In this document: positions 2,411 to 44,158 of the stretch, one piece after another
Layout: every line of letters starts with the position of its first letter
How positions within the stretch are numbered: position 1 is the first letter of the stretch
DNA from: Actinomycetota bacterium
Lineage (GTDB): Bacteria > Actinomycetota > Thermoleophilia > Miltoncostaeales > Miltoncostaeaceae
Direction: 5' to 3'
Assembly: GCA_031372145.1 (NCBI GenBank)
Contig: JANMKR010000176.1
Location: 1,876-65,875, forward strand
Length of the DNA: 64,000 nucleotides
The notes under the pieces: generated by a model
The model's database searches: none
Told to the model about the DNA's origin: nothing
What the model saw: only the letters and a program-made list of their open reading frames with translations
Made by a program: the position numbers and the translations under genes

Positions 2411-3436
2411 ATGTATCGCAGCGCCGCTGGCGACGAATACTTCGTGGTCGACGGGCACGTCCACTGGTGGGACGGAAGCCCTGCGAACCAGAAGAACGAG
2501 TACGGCAAGGGGTTCATCTCGTGTTTCTACGACTATCACTCGGGCCTGTCGCCCGCGGAGTACGTCTGGCCACGGGAGAAGTACGAGAAGTACGACAAGG
2601 AGACGATGTTCCAGGACATGTTCGTCGACGGGTACGTCGATGTCGGCATCTTGCAGCCGACCTACCTGACGGATTTCTACGTCAACGGGTTCAACACGAC
2701 CGCCCGGGACGCGGAGCTGAAGAACCTGCACCCCGACCGGTTTGTCCTCAACAGCGCGTGGGATCCGCGTGACGGCGACCGAGGCCTGGCCGAGTTCGAG
2801 GAGAAGGTCGCGACCTACGGGATCAAGGGCGTCAAGCTCTACACGGCCGAGTGGCGCGGTGACTCGCGCGGCTGGAGCCTGACCGACCCGATGGCCGAGC
2901 GGTACCTCGCCAAATGCCAGGAACTCGGCGTCAAGAACATCCACGTGCACAAGGGCCCCACGATCTGGCCGCTCAACAAGGACGCCTTCGACGTCGCCGA
3001 CATCGACCACGCCGCGACGAACTTCCCGGAGCTCAACTTCATCGTCGAGCACGTCGGCATGCCGCGGACCGAGGACTTCTGCTGGATCGCCGTGCAGGAG
3101 CCGAACGTCTACGGGGGCCTGGCAGTGCTCATGCCGTTCATCCACCCACGGCCGCGGTATTTCGCTGAGGTGATGGCCGAGCTGCTCTTCTGGCTCGGGC
3201 CTGACCGCCTGCTGTTCTCATCCGACTACGCGCTGTGGCACCCGAAATGGCTCATCGAGAAGTTCGTGGACTTCGAGATCCCGGAGGACATCGCGTCCCA
3301 AGTGGGCGTGCAGCTCAGCGTCGAGACCAAGCAGAAGATCCTGGGGCTCAACGCCGCCAAGCTCTACGACATCGACCCCGAGGCGCACGCCGCCAAGCTG
3401 GCGGACGACGTGTTCAGCAAGATGGTCGCGGCGTGA
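2411..3436 (+). CDS. Amidohydrolase_2-type metal-dependent TIM-barrel hydrolase/decarboxylase
   Basis: Lies within ORF 2387..3436. ATG 2411 is preferred because GGAGG sits 5 nt upstream. It has the FVVDGHVHWW HxH metal motif near the N-terminus, and its length and sequence resemble the ACMSD/LigI-like family. Confidence 0.7.
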   Translation: MYRSAAGDEYFVVDGHVHWWDGSPANQKNEYGKGFISCFYDYHSGLSPAEYVWPREKYEKYDKETMFQDMFVDGYVDVGILQPTYLTDFYVNGFNTTARDAELKNLHPDRFVLNSAWDPRDGDRGLAEFEEKVATYGIKGVKLYTAEWRGDSRGWSLTDPMAERYLAKCQELGVKNIHVHKGPTIWPLNKDAFDVADIDHAATNFPELNFIVEHVGMPRTEDFCWIAVQEPNVYGGLAVLMPFIHPRPRYFAEVMAELLFWLGPDRLLFSSDYALWHPKWLIEKFVDFEIPEDIASQVGVQLSVETKQKILGLNAAKLYDIDPEAHAAKLADDVFSKMVAA

Positions 3437-4146
3437 TCAGCGCCGAGCAGGTCTGGACGGTCCTCGCGGACGTCCGCGACCCGGAGCTCGACCGAAGCGT
3501 GGTCGAACTCGATTTCGTCCAATCCGTGTCGGTGGAGGGCGATGACGCGACGGTCGCCCTGCGTCTGCCGACATTTTGGTGCTCCCCCAGCTTCGCGTAC
3601 ATGATGGTCAGTGATGCGCGTGACGCCGTCTCGGCCCTCGATGGGGTCGGGACGGTGCACATCGATCTGGTCGACCATCACGTGGGTGCCATCGTCACCG
3701 AAGGGGTCCGGTCAGGACGAACGTTCACCGAGACGTTCCCGGACCACGCCGACGGGGAACTCGGTGAACTGCGACGGAAGTTCCGGCTCAAGGCGTTCCT
3801 GGTGCGCCAGGAGCCGGTCCTGCGAGCGGCCCGGGACGCGTTCGGCGCCGCCCGGGCCGTGGAGCTGCGCCTGGGCGACGGGAGCGCTCCGGTCGGCATC
3901 GACGGCGAGGAGTGGCGTGAATATCTGCGCCGGCGACGCGAACTGGACATGGATGACGGTCCTGATGCACTGGTGTTCACGAGCGCCCAAGGCGAACCGC
4001 TGGACACGGAGGGGCTCGACCATTTCATCCGCATCTCACGTTCGGTGCGGGTGAGCCTGATGGCCAACACCGAGTTCTGCACCGGGCTCCTGGCAGCGCG
4101 GTATGACGAGTTGGAACACTGGCAACACGCGGAGGTGACCCGATGA
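3433..4146 (+). CDS. DUF59 (MIP18/PaaD-like) domain protein with an uncharacterised C-terminal domain
   Basis: The real start is GTG 3433, which overlaps the upstream TGA as GTGA. The N-terminus VISAEQVWTVLADVRDPELDRSVVELDFVQSVSVEGDDATVALRLPTFWCSP is a typical DUF59 domain. The upstream part of ORF 3235..4146 overlaps the amidohydrolase and is discarded. Confidence 0.6.
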   Translation: MISAEQVWTVLADVRDPELDRSVVELDFVQSVSVEGDDATVALRLPTFWCSPSFAYMMVSDARDAVSALDGVGTVHIDLVDHHVGAIVTEGVRSGRTFTETFPDHADGELGELRRKFRLKAFLVRQEPVLRAARDAFGAARAVELRLGDGSAPVGIDGEEWREYLRRRRELDMDDGPDALVFTSAQGEPLDTEGLDHFIRISRSVRVSLMANTEFCTGLLAARYDELEHWQHAEVTR

Positions 4147-12423: not shown

Positions 12424-13776
12424 ATGAGCACGCACACACCCAGACATACCGACGGGACACGCCCCCGCCGAGCACCCCGGCGCTGGGCGAGCGCCACGGT
12501 CCCGATGGATCTGACCGATCAGCTCGGACGTTTCGCCGATGCGCGCGATCAGCTCGCAGCGATCGCGATGTACCACTTTCGTGATCTGGTGCGCCAGGTC
12601 GGGTGGCAGGTCGGCGACGCCAAAGCGGAGGATCTCGTCCAGGATGTGATCCTGCGCCACCTGGGTCGTCACGACACCGACCCGCAACCGCAGTACACGA
12701 GCGTCAACGCATACCACAAGCTGCGCTCAAGCCTCATCACGTCGACAAAGAACGCGGCGATCGACCATCTCCGCAGAACGGCGACGCGCGCTGAGATGCC
12801 GGTCGGAACGTTCGGGGGCGACCGGGTCGACACCGTCGTCGGACGCGCCGGCGGCGTCCTGACATCCGATGTCTGCGACGACCTCGTCCGCGATCTGGAC
12901 AGCTCGGCCCTCCATGACGGGTTGCGGCGCGTCGACGGACGCCACGCCCAGCTGCTTCGCATGAAACTCAACGGGGCGACCTTCAGCGACATCGCAACCC
13001 ACATGGAGGTCTCCACGACCACCGCCTACAAGGCCTACCAACGCGCAATGCGCAGCGTGCAACCGGTTCTCGAGCGGTACGGCGCCGGCGGCTTCTGCAA
13101 CGAGTACGGGCCGTACCTGATGATCGCGCGGCAGGAACACGACCGAGCTGACGATCCGTCAGGTGAACAACCGTTGACCGACATGATCGGCATTGAGCGT
13201 GCCCTCGAACTTCGTCTGCACGTCTACGGCGACCCCGACGTCGACTCCGACGAGGGCTGCGTCGCATGCCGACATGCCGGTGCCCAACACGGAGCGGCGC
13301 TCGTCATGTACCTCCCGGCGCCGTTGCTCCTGATGCCGGCGACCGGCGTCATCGCCGTCGCAAAGGGTGCGGCGGCAAGCGTGTGGAGTTCGGTGACGGG
13401 CTGGTTCAGCGGACTGCTGGGCGGATCTGCGGCCAGCGGCGTTGCCGCCAAAGGGGTGGGTGTCGTCATCGCCGCCGCCGTCGCGATCGGCGGGACGATC
13501 ACGGTCAACCATGTCGCCGACGGCCACGTCGCCCCCGCGCGCGGAGCGAAGGGGCTGACCGCCGCGCCCGCAGTGACGATCGCGGGACAACCGAAACCTG
13601 TGACGCCACCACCGATTCCCGCCAGAACATCGTCGCGTCGATCCACTCCTGCGACGAGCACGGCGCGCTCCGGTTCACCGGCATCGGGGTTGACACCCAC
13701 CCCGCAGCCACGCACCGGTGCCGATCGACCGCGCAGTGGTGGTCACGGCAACCCCGCTGCGGAGTTCACGCCATAA
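12424..13776 (+). CDS. ECF-like sigma-70 factor fused to a Cys-containing linker, one TM helix and a Pro/Ser/Thr-rich tail
   Basis: The start is ATG 12424. Region 2 is AEDLVQDVILRHL...NAAIDHLRR. Region 4 HTH is LLRMKLNGATFSDIATHMEVSTTTAYKAYQRAMR. These are followed by ...DEGCVACRH..., a hydrophobic segment (VGVVIAAAVAIGGTITV) and a P/S/T/R-rich C-terminus. The ORF-track extension 12121-12423 overlaps the previous gene and is discarded. Confidence 0.65.
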   Translation: MSTHTPRHTDGTRPRRAPRRWASATVPMDLTDQLGRFADARDQLAAIAMYHFRDLVRQVGWQVGDAKAEDLVQDVILRHLGRHDTDPQPQYTSVNAYHKLRSSLITSTKNAAIDHLRRTATRAEMPVGTFGGDRVDTVVGRAGGVLTSDVCDDLVRDLDSSALHDGLRRVDGRHAQLLRMKLNGATFSDIATHMEVSTTTAYKAYQRAMRSVQPVLERYGAGGFCNEYGPYLMIARQEHDRADDPSGEQPLTDMIGIERALELRLHVYGDPDVDSDEGCVACRHAGAQHGAALVMYLPAPLLLMPATGVIAVAKGAAASVWSSVTGWFSGLLGGSAASGVAAKGVGVVIAAAVAIGGTITVNHVADGHVAPARGAKGLTAAPAVTIAGQPKPVTPPPIPARTSSRRSTPATSTARSGSPASGLTPTPQPRTGADRPRSGGHGNPAAEFTP

Positions 13777-25617: not shown

Positions 25618-28143
25618 ATGAGAGACGCGACCAACGACGACCAGGTGACATCGCGCGAATCGGATGCCCTACGGAGCGCGACGTTCGCCGAGAAGCAGGT
25701 GCCGTCCGCACCCGAACCAGGGCAGGACCAGCCGTTCCACCAGCCGATGTACGGTGAGGAGACTCGGGCATTGTCCGCGCAGTGGCGTGTCTTCGCGCGG
25801 TTCGCAACCGGCGTCGCCGTCCTCACGGCGCCGGTCTTCTTTCTCGTGTTGTACCGCGCCCTCGGCTGGAGTGCGGTTGCGGCCGGACTCGTCGCCGCAC
25901 TCGCGGTCTTCGCGTTCCGCGGGCTCATGGACATGGTCTCGCGGTGGCTGATCCCCTATCCGAGCCTGTTCGGCGACGACGACCGCCTTCGCGAATCGGA
26001 CATCGTCTCCCGGCGCCGCGCCTGGTTCTGGAGATCGTGGTTTCGTCGCATCTGGATCCTCGGCGTCCTGTATCTGGTCCTCGCCCTCATCACCTTCGTG
26101 GTGCATGCGGCAAATGGCGACACCGGCATCACCAGTGCACTCGCAGCACCCGGCTCCTGGATTGGCGACCAGATTGCACGCCCGGAGAACCGCACCAACC
26201 TCGTCATCACCGCGTTGACGCTGCCGCTGATCCTCGTGTTCAACGTCATCATCCTGCTCGGCCCGTTGCTCTATGCCGGTATCAAGCAGATCAACGCGTT
26301 CGAACCCGGCGACGCCGATTGGGGTGTCCGGATGGCCGATGTGCGAGGACAGGCCGAACCCAAGGAGGAGATCCGCCGAATCGTTGGTCTGTGGCAGGCG
26401 GGTGATGAATTTGAGCGCGCCGGCGGAAAGCGTGAGCGCGGCGTGTTGTTCCTGGGTCCTCCCGGAACCGGCAAGACCATGCTGGCCAAGGCGATCGCCT
26501 CGGGCTTCAACTGTCCCTTCGTCTCGGTGCCGGGTTCGGCGTTCGCGCAAACGTTCATCGGGGTTGACGTCATCCTCGTCATGTGGCTGTCGTGGCGCGC
26601 GCGGCGCCTTGCGCGCAAGTGGGGCGGCCAATGCATCGTGTTCATCGACGAGATCGACGCGGTGGGAATGCGCCGGGCCAGCCTCGGTGGGGCGTACGCC
26701 ACCCCCGCCGGTCAACCGTCGCTCCACGACCTCTGTTTCTTCGGGCCGTACGGGTCCATCAACCCCAGCGGCGACCTCGTCGTCGAAACCGAAGAGTGGC
26801 GAAAGCGGATGTTCGCGGCCCGTGCTCCTGGGCTGCAGCCCCTGTACTCCGCGCCCGTGCAGCGCCTTGCCGACGCGATCCGCAACACGGTGTTTCCCGG
26901 TGTCGGCGGGACGATGGGACAAGGCGGCCTGCAGCAGCTGCTCGTTTCGATGGACGGCGTGAGCACACCCAGCCTGACCCGTCGACTCCTCGTCAATCGC
27001 CTCAACACGTGGTTGGACGCGACGTATGTGATTCCGCCCCGAATCAGGAACATCCGCCTGCGACTTCCCGCGGCGCGTCCTCGCCGTGAGCAGCTGTACT
27101 TCATCGGCGCATGCAACGCACCATTGGAGTCCCTCGATCCGGCACTCACCCGCCCCGGACGCATGGGCCGCCACGTGGAGTTCCGGACGCCGAACCGTCA
27201 CGACCGCAGCGACATCTTCGACCTGTACCTCGGCAAGGTGGCGCACGACCCGGAACTGGACTCTGAGGGCCGCCGTGACGAGCTGGCGCGCATCACCATG
27301 GGCCACTCCCCCGCCATGATCGAACAGGTCTGCTCCCTCGCGTTGACCAACGCACATCACAAGGGCCGGCAGGCGTTCGAATGGCGCGACCTGGTCGAGG
27401 CCATCACGGTCGTCGAAGCAGGTATCGAGTCGGGCTTCAAGTACGGCGACGACGAGGCCCGGGCGATCGCCATCCACGAGGCCGGACACGCGGTCACCGG
27501 CCACCTGTACATGAAGGGCCACACCTCGACACGCCTGACGATCAAACCTCGGGGCGACTCGGGCGGACACCACATGATGCAGCGGATCGACGAGCGGATG
27601 TTCAAGTGGCGCCACGAACGGTTCGCAGATCTGGTGTGGAGCCTTGGAGCCATCGCTGCCGAGCGCGTCTTCTACAACGAGAACGGCAACGGCGTCGCCG
27701 GTGACATCTCGGGAGCCACGGCATCGGCCGCGATGATGGTCGGTGTCAACGGCATGCCGCCAGAGATCCCGGACCTCCGCGACCGGTTTGCGACCGAGGC
27801 CGAGGCGCAGGTCGCCGAGCGCAGGCTCATGCGCCGATTCGAGCGTATCGGCAACCAGATCATGAATCGTGCCTCGATGGGCAGCGCGCTCCATGGCGAC
27901 CCGGTCGCGGCCGTACTGAGTGACCCGACCAAACGCACCATGGTCGCCGAACTTCTGGGGCAGGCGTATCTGACCGCCTACTGGTTCGTTCGACACAACC
28001 GCGAGGCCACCGAACGCGTCGCTGATGCGCTCCAGGAGCGCCGCGAGATCTTCGGCGACGATGTCCTGAGCCTGCTGGACAGCGTGCATTTGGCAATCCC
28101 GCAGATCGACCCACTTGATGAGGCAAATTGGCCGAGGATCTGA
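25618..28143 (+). CDS. Divergent FtsH-like AAA+ ATPase / M41 zinc metalloprotease with a 4-TM N-terminus
   Basis: Walker A is GVLFLGPPGTGKTMLAKA and Walker B is IVFIDEIDAVG. The second region of homology is LDPALTRPGRMGRHVEF and the zinc site is AIHEAGHAV. There are four predicted TM helices in the first 230 aa. An insertion of about 130-150 aa lies between Walker B and the sensor-1 region. Confidence 0.7.
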   Translation: MRDATNDDQVTSRESDALRSATFAEKQVPSAPEPGQDQPFHQPMYGEETRALSAQWRVFARFATGVAVLTAPVFFLVLYRALGWSAVAAGLVAALAVFAFRGLMDMVSRWLIPYPSLFGDDDRLRESDIVSRRRAWFWRSWFRRIWILGVLYLVLALITFVVHAANGDTGITSALAAPGSWIGDQIARPENRTNLVITALTLPLILVFNVIILLGPLLYAGIKQINAFEPGDADWGVRMADVRGQAEPKEEIRRIVGLWQAGDEFERAGGKRERGVLFLGPPGTGKTMLAKAIASGFNCPFVSVPGSAFAQTFIGVDVILVMWLSWRARRLARKWGGQCIVFIDEIDAVGMRRASLGGAYATPAGQPSLHDLCFFGPYGSINPSGDLVVETEEWRKRMFAARAPGLQPLYSAPVQRLADAIRNTVFPGVGGTMGQGGLQQLLVSMDGVSTPSLTRRLLVNRLNTWLDATYVIPPRIRNIRLRLPAARPRREQLYFIGACNAPLESLDPALTRPGRMGRHVEFRTPNRHDRSDIFDLYLGKVAHDPELDSEGRRDELARITMGHSPAMIEQVCSLALTNAHHKGRQAFEWRDLVEAITVVEAGIESGFKYGDDEARAIAIHEAGHAVTGHLYMKGHTSTRLTIKPRGDSGGHHMMQRIDERMFKWRHERFADLVWSLGAIAAERVFYNENGNGVAGDISGATASAAMMVGVNGMPPEIPDLRDRFATEAEAQVAERRLMRRFERIGNQIMNRASMGSALHGDPVAAVLSDPTKRTMVAELLGQAYLTAYWFVRHNREATERVADALQERREIFGDDVLSLLDSVHLAIPQIDPLDEANWPRI

Positions 28144-33801: not shown

Positions 33802-33877
<76 letters not shown>

Positions 33878-33963
33878 CGACGGCTCGTACGGTACCACGA
33901 CGGGCAGGGCAGCGCACTCACGACGGTACGTGGGCAGCTCCTGCCCGACCGAGCAAAGCGTCG

Positions 33964-34011
33964 CGAAATGGTCATTTGGCCGTCGCTGCCACGGCCACTT
34001 GTGTCGTCAAC
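33964..34011 (+). repeat. Direct repeat unit 1 of a conserved 47-48 nt hairpin motif
   Basis: Sequence CGAAATGGTCATTTGGCCGTCGCTGCCACGGCCACTTGTGTCGTCAAC. The internal inverted repeat TGGCCG/CGGCCA is conserved between units while the loop varies. Confidence 0.7.
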
Positions 34012-34114
34012 CGGCACAGAGTTGTGACACATCCGGCACATGTTGACGACGACGAGGCATCGTCGGCACGCCGCGCACCAGACGACCACCTGACTCGCCC
34101 GCCGGACGGCTCCA

Positions 34115-34161
34115 CGAAACGGTCATTTGGCCGCAACCGCGACGGCCACTTGTGTCTTAAC
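34115..34161 (+). repeat. Direct repeat unit 2 of the same motif
   Basis: Sequence CGAAACGGTCATTTGGCCGCAACCGCGACGGCCACTTGTGTCTTAAC. It is identical to unit 1 outside the hairpin loop except for 3 substitutions, and starts 151 nt after unit 1. Confidence 0.7.
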
Positions 34162-34306
34162 ACGCACACGTCGGTCGAACGGAGTTGCGGCGCCGACGTC
34201 AAGGGCTGCGTTGGACGCAACCGGCCTGGCGCGGGGTCAGCTCGGTCGACGGGCGAAGCGCCATCGCGTAGCCTTCGCCCGAGGCAACGGTCATCGGGAG
34301 CATTTC

Positions 34307-34783
34307 ATGGGTAAGGTCGTCTACCGCAGTACGGTCACGATCGAGCGGGAGCAACCGCCGCTTCGCCGTGCACATATCGACGTCACGGGAGAGTCGGTGC
34401 TCTTCGGCGTTCCCGGAGATGTCGGCGCGCATTACGGGTTCGCAGGCGATCACCCCGCGACCCAACACGCCGGCACGATCGATTACATCATCGCGGCGGC
34501 CGGCGGTTGACTGACCGGAACCTTCGGAGGCGCGCTGGCAGCGCGTCAAATCAATTCAAGCGGTGATCGACTCGTCGGAATCGCCGAGGGCGAGGTCGAA
34601 GAAGAGGACAAGGTCCTGATCCTCAAGCGCATCCACGTGACCTACCACCTGAAGCTCGAGGACCCCGACAAGCGTGCAGCCGCCGAGCGCGTCCTGGGCG
34701 CCCACGCCAAGTTCTGCCCGGTGGCCCGGTCGCTGATGCCCGCCATCGACATCACCACGTCGCTGGAGATCGAGCCGGTCTAG
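34307..34783 (+). CDS. OsmC/Ohr-family peroxiredoxin-like protein with an in-frame TGA (34508-34510) at the conserved first Cys: candidate selenoprotein or nonsense pseudogene
   Basis: ATG 34307 has GGGAG 6 nt upstream. The ORF track stops at ...DYIIAAAGG*. The same frame then continues stop-free to TAG 34781-34783 as LTGTFGGALAARQI...RIHVTYHLKL...AHAKFCPVARSL..., which completes an OsmC fold of 158 codons. Confidence 0.7.
34529..34547 (+). promoter_or_regulatory. SECIS-like hairpin downstream of the in-frame TGA
   Basis: GGCGCGC (34529-34535) pairs with GCGCGTC (34541-34547) as 7 bp including one G-U, closing the loop TGGCA. The stem starts 18 nt after the TGA. Confidence 0.35.
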
Positions 34784-34826
34784 CTCATAGGCGGTCCCAT
34801 GTCCGATCAGACCCGGCCGCGCAGCG

Positions 34827-35249
34827 TTAGCTTCCTTCCGCGGCCAGCTCCAGCTTGTTCTTGAGGTCCACCCAACCTGCGCCGGTGTCGGGGAACCGTT
34901 TGATGCAGTCGCCGATCTGGGTTGCCTGCCGTTTGGCGACCTCGCCGACGGTTGACGGGGACTGCCCCGAGGCACCCGGTACCTTGGCCTTGGGATTGCG
35001 CTTGGCCTCGCCGGCGATGGTCTCGACGGCGTCACGCACATTGCCTGGTGCCGTCTGGCCGACCTTCTTGCAATCGCCTCCCGTGGCGCTGTCAAGCACA
35101 CCGAGCGTTGCGCGAGCGGTGTCGAGCTTCTGCTGGACGTCATTCGTGAGGTGCTCCACATCGTCCTTCCATGGGGCCGTCCAGACCACACCGAACGTCC
35201 CGGCCACCAGAACCGCGATGACGAGCCACTTGATCAGAGCGCGTCCCAC
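34827..35249 (-). CDS. Hypothetical membrane-anchored/secreted protein (140 aa)
   Basis: N-terminal anchor [23 protein letters not shown] and two Cys residues. Its start overlaps the proS stop by 16 nt. I recognise no domain. Confidence 0.45.
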   Translation of the reverse strand: MGRALIKWLVIAVLVAGTFGVVWTAPWKDDVEHLTNDVQQKLDTARATLGVLDSATGGDCKKVGQTAPGNVRDAVETIAGEAKRNPKAKVPGASGQSPSTVGEVAKRQATQIGDCIKRFPDTGAGWVDLKNKLELAAEGS

Positions 35250-43603: not shown

Positions 43604-44158
43604 TCAGATCGCAAGAATCTCCGCTTCCTTCTTTGCCATCGCCGCATCGATCGACTTGACCTCACCATCGGTCAGCTTCTGCACCTCGTCCTGGACCCGC
43701 GATGCCTCGTCCTTGGAGACATCCCCGTCCTTTTCGCGCCGCTTCACATCGTTGAGGGTGTCACGCCGGACGTTGCGCACAGCGATGCGGGCGTCTTCGG
43801 CCATCTTGTGGACGAGCTTGACGTACTCCTTGCGCCGCTCCTCAGTCAGATCTGGGATCGGCAGGCGGATCATCTGTCCATCGTTGGACGGGGTCAGCCC
43901 GAGCTGGGCCTCCATGAGCGCTTTTTCGATCACCTTCATCAGGGTCTTGTCGAAGGGCTGGACCGTCAACAGGCGGGCCTCCGGGGCATGAATCGTCGCG
44001 ACCTGGTTGAGCGGCATGTCAGAACCGTAGGCCGCGACGGTGACCCGGTCCAGCAGGTGCGTTGACGCGCGACCGGTACGCACGCTCGCGAACTCGGCCT
44101 CCAGGCTCTTGAGGGCGCCCTCCATCCGGCGCTTCGCGTCTGCAATCAGCTCCTTCAT
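43604..44158 (-). CDS. frr: Ribosome recycling factor
   Basis: 184 aa with typical Frr sequence ([21 protein letters not shown]...). Confidence 0.95.

Follow-up and report, generated by a model that had tools for sequence, protein, structure and literature searches.

The locus described here lies in a 64,000-nucleotide stretch of contig JANMKR010000176.1 (assembly GCA_031372145.1; hereafter the window), assigned to an actinobacterium of the family Miltoncostaeaceae within the class Thermoleophilia. Positions 34307-34783 on the forward strand form a single frame of 158 codons, extending from ATG 34307-34309 to TAG 34781-34783, and the sole in-frame stop inside it is the TGA at codon 68 (34508-34510). 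Translated across this codon, the conceptual product reads ...TIDYIIAAAGG-[TGA]-LTGTFGGALAAR...AKFCPVARS..., with LTGTFGG following directly on the TGA. Judged from comparative sequence analysis, the frame very probably encodes one 158-residue protein of the OsmC/Ohr/YhfA superfamily that carries selenocysteine (Sec) at its peroxidatic residue 68, specified by UGA together with an in-frame selenocysteine insertion sequence (SECIS). The features of the gene are as follows.

34296-34300, forward strand: GGGAG resembling a Shine-Dalgarno sequence, visible in the DNA 6 nt before the ATG; gene callers pick the same ATG for a 67-residue fragment.
34307-34783, forward strand: predicted OsmC-like selenoprotein coding sequence (CDS) of 158 codons, with a putative Sec codon at position 68 and a TAG stop; supported by the single frame, a Pfam OsmC match, homologues of about 157 residues and purifying selection on both halves.
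34508-34510, forward strand: UGA codon 68, apparently read as Sec, in the peroxidatic-Cys column; TGA in 147 of 154 homologous loci and aligned with OsmC Cys59 and with the corresponding Cys of YhfA and Ta0195.
34529-34547, forward strand: candidate bacterial SECIS hairpin within the CDS; supported by frozen synonymous sites, 6-7 consensus pairs, the bacterial SECIS (bSECIS) criteria and its degradation in Cys forms.
34715-34717, forward strand: TGC codon 137, the second (resolving) Cys, in the motif FCPVARS; invariant in alignments and aligned with E. coli OsmC Cys125 in GCPV.

In the current record the gene is a 67-residue "hypothetical protein", and the two-Cys catalytic domain is missing or entered as a separate fragment. 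CTG directly follows the TGA, and from this codon onward the sequence is conserved, with no in-frame ATG, GTG or TTG until much farther downstream. Because the downstream C-terminal two-thirds of the protein is under selection and no start codon lies nearby, read-through of the UGA is required. A first-pass annotation made from the window alone had proposed the 158-codon gene, its start, stop and TGA, the hairpin downstream and a second conserved Cys in FCPV; each of these coordinates was confirmed to the base, and the second Cys corresponds to the invariant C137.

Membership in the OsmC superfamily is supported at several levels. With Cys in place of the internal stop, the product matches the Pfam family OsmC (PF02566) over residues 59-151 (E=1.3e-11; 45.2 bits versus a gathering score of 27.5). 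Three branches of this superfamily are recognised, OsmC, Ohr and YhfA; its members are Cys-based peroxidases that use one peroxidatic and one resolving Cys, and lipoyl-dependent systems recycle those of the Ohr and OsmC branches (PMC8945050). The window protein and its subfamily reach the cutoff of no NCBIfam OsmC-type model; for TIGR03562 (OsmC), TIGR03561 (Ohr) and TIGR03563 (SACOL1771), all scores are at or below 21 bits versus cutoffs of 85.8, 88.9 and 166, respectively. Only two residues are candidates for redox activity, Cys137, which is invariant, and position 68, occupied by Cys or TGA; they match the two conserved Cys positions of the superfamily, a peroxidatic one on helix 1 and a resolving one in C-P-x. 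In profile alignments, U68 falls on E. coli OsmC Cys59 (AAHAAC, then F), on the Cys of the YhfA GGC and on the first Cys of Ta0195 (PDB 2onf), and C137 falls on E. coli OsmC Cys125 (GCPV); the proposal that the TGA occupies the position of the conserved redox Cys thus holds at the level of alignment to OsmC homologues. The HMMER alignment to OhrB begins after the Cys and shifts it by one helical turn, which was judged a local artefact of a common FGGALE string, the OsmC, YhfA and Ta0195 alignments being mutually consistent. The AlphaFold2 model of P0013, the nearest Cys-containing homologue (predicted local distance difference test score 84.7; predicted template modelling score 0.80), retrieved only OsmC/Ohr-family structures from the PDB in a Foldseek search (47/47 matches at E<=1e-3). 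The template modelling (TM) scores of these matches were just 0.4-0.6, a range that an intertwined dimer modelled as a monomer would be expected to give, and identity to the solved OsmC/Ohr structures was 11-20%. Through this Cys homologue, the window protein is predicted to have the OsmC fold. Catalytic Arg and Glu residues near the peroxidatic Cys are present in Ohr and OsmC but absent in YhfA. Inspection by eye alone puts D59 of the window protein nine residues N-terminal of U68, a distance matching that of the Glu in the PEEL motif of OsmC, and finds an Arg or Lys to be frequent at positions 20-21.

The codon at position 68 was compared across homologues. A search of 5.8 billion proteins returned three types of match, namely proteins of about 157 residues with Cys at the column, full-length proteins with "W" there, and many "OsmC family protein" fragments of 87-89 residues that begin M-(T/L)-G-T-F-G-G, one codon past the Sec column. 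Every residue at this column of the protein alignment is C or "W", the W being a mistranslated TGA; where the DNA behind the matches was examined, TGA was present in every case, for example in an Acidimicrobiia metagenome-assembled genome, in the complete Desulfobacterales chromosome CP070694.1 and in a contig with a "W" call. When one genome per GTDB species was scanned, more than 527 of these genomes contained a relative; of the best 80, 73 have TGA and 7 have TGC or TGT. A metagenome scan and near relatives contributed 74 further loci, all with TGA, bringing the column total over 154 homologous loci to 147 TGA, 6 TGC and 1 TGT. Homologues of both kinds, Sec and Cys, were found; the first-pass annotation had proposed looking for such orthologues among relatives. 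The Sec forms span at least eight phyla overall, and their hosts include Desulfobacterales, other "delta proteobacteria", Polyangia, Chloroflexota, Gemmatimonadota, Methylomirabilota/NC10, Acidobacteriota (Bryobacterales, Pyrinomonadales and Thermoanaerobaculia), Acidimicrobiia, Gaiellales and Thermoleophilia. The codon after the TGA is CTN in 70/70 Sec forms (CTG 46, CTC 13, CTT 9, CTA 2), and these sequences share the motif U-L-T-G-T, with Gly at +3 in all 70 and Thr at +2 and +4.

Public annotation of these genes is inconsistent. For loci such as CP070694.1 (L003 and L045) and L001, GenBank gives a "hypothetical protein" of 66-67 residues plus an "OsmC family protein" of 87-89 residues, and in some JGI, ENA and NCBI metagenome calls the TGA becomes Trp, apparently because the gene models used code 4. 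No gene neighbour of L001 or L003 is common to the two or to the window; this comparison covered only the first loci inspected and was not a systematic neighbourhood analysis.

A sequencing or assembly error at 34510, or a reassigned TGA codon, has a next to negligible probability. The contig does come from a metagenome-assembled genome, and some database entries give W for the codon, but the codon behind the W calls is TGA, a stop under table 11. The same TGA occurs in many independent assemblies and in the four closest orthologues of the gene (L089-L092). Furthermore, clustering at >=90% identity places the 67-residue open reading frame (ORF) that stops at the TGA in a group of 26 distinct sequences, of which one is present on 50 contigs, and assembly error is excluded by this recurrence; one member of the cluster, P0123, is itself a 158-residue read-through call. 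Elsewhere in the window TGA is an ordinary stop, as the first-pass annotation had held, ending frr at 43604 just before uppS as well as most coding-like ORFs.

Downstream of the UGA, the hairpin at 34529-34547 consists of a 5' arm GGCGCGC (34529-34535), a loop UGGCA (34536-34540) and a 3' arm GCGCGUC (34541-34547), giving 7 bp with one G-U pair and a folding energy of -13.3 kcal/mol. It begins 18 nt past the TGA, the UGA-to-loop spacing is 25 nt, and the loop GG (34537-34538) lies 27-28 nt past the A of the UGA. The bSECIS model specifies an apical loop of 3-9 nt of the form N1-G-[G/U]-N-N2, an upper stem of 4-16 bp, a UGA-to-loop distance of 16-37 nt and a minimum free energy of <= -7.5 kcal/mol (PMC13188914, summarising Zhang and Gladyshev 2005). 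The window element agrees with all of these constraints, including a 5-nt loop whose terminal U and A are able to pair. An Rfam scan of the sequence gave no SECIS or tRNA-Sec match, only sub-threshold noise, and Rfam holds no model for the hairpin.

Among 70 distinct Sec-form sequences, third codon positions over the hairpin are almost fixed, with an entropy of 0.42 bits at Gly+7 (GGC in 64/70), 0.11 at Ala+8 (GCG in 69/70), 0.00 at Leu+9 (CTG in 70/70) and 0.22 at codon +11 (GCG in 65/70), compared with 1.2-1.8 bits at the invariant Gly, Leu, Thr and Ala codons flanking it. The Arg+12 codon is exclusively CGY, of which either base pairs with the opposing G. RNAalifold and explicit pair counts identified six invariant-to-wobble pairs (columns 23-28 with 34-39), an optional outer G-C pair that is present in the window, an optional closing U-R pair and an invariant loop GG; one true compensatory change was observed (G-C to A-U in L066), plus several wobble changes. 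In the seven Cys forms, almost the same peptide is encoded with CTC, AAG, GCC, GCA and CGG, and most of these sequences no longer form the canonical stem. The SECIS-like hairpin of the first-pass annotation is therefore conserved beyond the needs of the protein in Sec forms.

A second RNA form was recovered in a soil Sec sub-clade of 70-76% G+C (n=11: L098, L100, L101, L103, L105, L106, L110, L121, L132, L139 and L165). These genes encode the same GGALEAR by a coordinated codon set, GGA GCA CTY GAG GCR CGR GGC TTC, and within the first 66 nt after the TGA they form a hairpin about 13 bp long, containing a bulged A and having AGGCR as its loop, in place of GGCGCGC-UGGAR-GCGCGY. Two RNA solutions over one peptide, each placing GG in a small loop about 25-30 nt past the UGA, are the pattern expected of a selected SECIS.

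The same data bear on whether the gene could yield a product free of selenium, either as a two-piece protein made by re-initiation after the TGA or through a near-cognate tRNA reading UGA as Trp, Cys or Arg. Some species do offer gene callers a start just past the TGA, as in the M-TGTFGG fragments, and the N- and C-terminal subdomains of the OsmC fold are separable (PMC8945050). However, the CTN codons that follow the TGA in all Sec forms are poor or non-start codons, and no conserved Shine-Dalgarno sequence precedes them, since that stretch encodes AAAGG. Neither re-initiation nor read-through by another tRNA fits with a TGA that alternates specifically with Cys at the catalytic position, or with a GG-loop hairpin selected at SECIS spacing in two sequence forms. 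An origin of this kind is thus extremely improbable.

Evidence for decoding within the window's own lineage comes from L089-L092, whose products are 82-96% identical to that of the window. All four carry the TGA and the hairpin with a clade-specific loop UGGCA, and adjacent synonymous sites vary. Over codons 69-158, the ratio of non-synonymous to synonymous substitution rates (dN/dS) is 0.00-0.08 in the species-level clade and 0.14-0.28 versus L092, with dS of 0.14-0.78; between the window and L090, this region differs by 17 synonymous changes and 1 non-synonymous change. The N-terminal dN/dS with L092 is invalid owing to a one-codon indel and was disregarded. In a neighbour-joining tree, which lacks bootstrap values and is indicative only, the five-member Sec clade of the window has 11 Cys forms from actinobacteria as its sister group. 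The arrangement suggests a switch between Sec and Cys in these two groups, with loss of the hairpin on the Cys side.

Several results weigh against Sec insertion at this locus. Searches by tblastn with E. coli SelA, SelB and SelD found no selA, selB or selD in the 64-kb window or in any of the related loci, and no tRNA-Sec was detected by ARAGORN or Rfam in the window or by ARAGORN in about 1.2 Mb of related-locus flanks. The 60-nt post-UGA fold is not significant relative to dinucleotide shuffles (z = -0.69; 44/200 shuffles fold as well) in this 67% GC DNA. Covariation is thin in the main Sec group, where the sequence is nearly invariant, and the window loop UGGCA is one base off the UGGAR of other Sec forms, although it is kept in its own clade. 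HHalign probabilities for the profile versus single E. coli sequences are low (5.8% and 21.5%). Two genus-level relatives with 85-87% ProS identity, L087 and L088, share the synteny and the adjacent tRNA-Pro(GGG) but show no trace of the gene. Finally, no biochemical study of OsmC-like selenoproteins was found in the literature, in which the family is known bioinformatically.

Part of this evidence is compatible with a pseudogene, in which a Cys-type OsmC gene recently suffered a TGC-to-TGA nonsense mutation and the hairpin is a G+C-rich coincidence. The single sequence folds no better than shuffles, the closest sister group in the tree has TGC or TGT at this codon, and the absence of the gene from genus-level relatives indicates that it is dispensable. 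However, because the hairpin alone is unremarkable in 67% G+C DNA, it is the comparison with other sequences that carries the case for a SECIS, and there the synonymous sites over the hairpin are frozen in TGA forms only. The TGA is common to 147 loci in many phyla, and all five members of the window clade keep it together with the hairpin and an intact downstream frame under a dN/dS of 0.00-0.28, rather than having TGC and an unconserved hairpin, the finding that the first-pass annotation had named as refuting its proposal. That annotation had left the choice between Sec recoding and a TGC-to-TGA lesion; the former is supported, and the latter is excluded as an explanation for a TGA shared across phyla, so that a pseudogene is a highly implausible account.

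It is also very unlikely, if somewhat less so, that a true Sec gene was inherited or acquired by a host that lacks the Sec machinery and makes only the 67-residue fragment. Such a relic would agree with the Sec machinery not being found in the window and related flanks, and with the position of the gene in a variable spot beside tRNA-Pro that lacks it in relatives of 85-87% ProS identity, a distribution that a recent horizontal acquisition could produce. In contrast, purifying selection 3' of the TGA persists over dS of up to 0.5-0.8 in the clade, and the loop variant UGGCA is kept in 5/5 clade members. Since the downstream selection and the conserved loop both require continued decoding, the sequence record indicates that the window's own lineage still decodes UGA. 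We infer the Sec machinery of the host from this selection on the gene, the direct view being that of the window and the flanks of related loci.

If UGA 68 is decoded as Sec, synthesis and catalysis could proceed as follows. A ribosome would reach the UGA at 34508-34510 while the hairpin at 34529-34547 is bound by SelB-GTP-Sec-tRNA(Sec); SelB would then deliver Sec, with release factor 2 as its competitor, and translation would go on to the TAG at 34781. By analogy with OsmC and Ohr, the selenolate of U68 may attack an organic or inorganic hydroperoxide to give a selenenic acid, which would react with the resolving Cys137 to form a selenenylsulfide. A cellular dithiol system would presumably reduce this bond, as the lipoyl-dependent one does in Ohr and OsmC.

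The gene occupies a slot next to one further annotated feature, which marks a variable spot, serves as context only and lies outside the recoding system.

33803-33877, reverse strand: tRNA-Pro(GGG), identified by ARAGORN and Rfam.

This tRNA gene adjoins the OsmC-like gene in the window, L089, L090 and L092. The slot between proS (with a conserved ORF of 126-140 residues) and tRNA-Pro(GGG) is variable, spanning 33803-35249 in the window, 12141-12545 in L087, 12141-12336 in L088, 11746-14172 in L089 and 11746-14209 in L090. It is empty in L087 and L088 and contains the OsmC-like gene in the window and L092; L090 additionally holds an acetyltransferase gene, and L089 two extra ORFs. Judged from this synteny, the OsmC-like gene is an accessory gene in a variable spot. 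The neighbouring dxr, rseP, ispG, proS, RsiG-like, FHA and MerR genes are core genes of the lineage, and ProS, encoded 450 bp off, is 72-74% identical to Miltoncostaeaceae and Thermoleophilia proteins and 85-97% identical to those of metagenomic relatives, which indicates an uncultured, Thermoleophilia-like actinobacterium as the source of the window. Between tRNA-Pro and the OsmC-like gene lie two copies of a 42-nt element (33964-34005 and 34115-34156), which are 86% identical and 151 nt apart. Each copy has an internal 6-7-bp hairpin (TGGCCG...CGGCCA), with 2 matches in the window versus 0 expected. The element was not found in any of 172 homologous or related loci, near relatives included, and could be a regulatory operator or an insertion remnant. 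Farther away, 25618-28143 on the forward strand encodes an 841-residue FtsH-like ORF in which AAA and Peptidase_M41 domains were recognised, and long stretches at its N-terminus and centre have no match; relatives encode this form at the same unusual length (840 residues in L087).

Two scans for in-frame TGA codons gave no candidate for a second selenoprotein in the window, both being too strict, as they missed the OsmC gene itself. The matches that the scans did return were rejected as antisense artefacts, the frr/uppS junction, or ORF pairs without a Pfam match. At 3367-4035 and 12730-13674, both on the reverse strand, coding-like ORFs abut in frame across a TGA (3712 and 13159, respectively). 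Neither half of either pair has a Pfam match, and start codons lie 6-10 codons past the TGA; these are probably merely neighbouring genes.

Sec at the redox Cys of an OsmC-type protein has been known since 2005, when an "OsmC-like protein" selenoprotein family was described from the Sargasso Sea on the basis of 3 sequences (COG1765/PF02566, motif UxxT; Zhang, Fomenko and Gladyshev 2005). The GOS 2008 analysis, with 5 sequences, and reviews of 2022 and 2026 list the family again, and it is an accepted one. The genes described here resemble it in belonging to the OsmC superfamily, in having Sec in place of the first conserved Cys, in having Cys homologues and in carrying a bacterial SECIS just 3' of the UGA. 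However, they share U-L-T-G-T with an invariant Gly at +3, whereas the published motif is UxxT, a comparison made with the published motif and not with exemplar sequences. In addition, the literature family is rare (3 plus 5 sequences), whereas relatives of the present one occur in more than 527 species genomes. The review exemplars MBR72571.1 and MCS5647933.1 are not among the accessions recovered here. The odds that the window subfamily is identical to the published "OsmC-like" family are about even.

A second point of comparison is NCBIfam NF041052, the "OsmC-related (seleno)protein" model, which covers the same region including the Sec column and is the best or second-best NCBIfam match for several members. 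However, the window protein scores only 16.6 bits versus a cutoff of 95, and among ten relatives scanned, six score 13-18 bits and three have no match at E <= 1; the subfamily is therefore not a member. GenBank splits these genes into two ORFs because the subfamily falls outside NF041052. Relative to E. coli OsmC, Ohr and YhfA, the subfamily has the same predicted fold and coincident Cys columns, but it is 15-20 residues longer at the N-terminus and has Sec instead of Cys. Its SECIS resembles that of E. coli fdhF and the bSECIS model in being a hairpin within the CDS a short way 3' of the UGA, whose apical loop is small with an early G-G and whose spacing lies in the range of 16-37 nt; it differs from the fdhF element in its unrelated sequence and in having two alternative hairpin architectures over the same peptide.

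The mechanism itself is therefore not new, but the subfamily may be. Tentatively, and with slightly less than even confidence, we propose a distinct and undescribed OsmC subfamily, separate from both the UxxT family and NF041052, which is mostly Sec-containing, spans hundreds of species in at least eight phyla including Thermoleophilia and Acidimicrobiia, is systematically split or mistranslated and uses two SECIS architectures. If true, it would rank among the more widespread unannotated bacterial selenoprotein families and provide a natural system for studying SECIS evolution within a CDS.

Collectively, the comparisons indicate that the same mis-annotation affects well over a hundred sampled loci in GenBank, IMG and ENA, with relatives in more than 500 species genomes. 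Corrected annotation would add a selenoprotein to many genomes and mark their hosts as selenium users. Within the OsmC/Ohr peroxidase superfamily, the gene extends the use of Sec to a clade of large size. The apparent Sec/Cys switch between sister actinobacterial groups would document loss of the RNA constraint on the Cys side, and the two SECIS hairpins over the same amino acids would offer a clean example of alternative RNA solutions.

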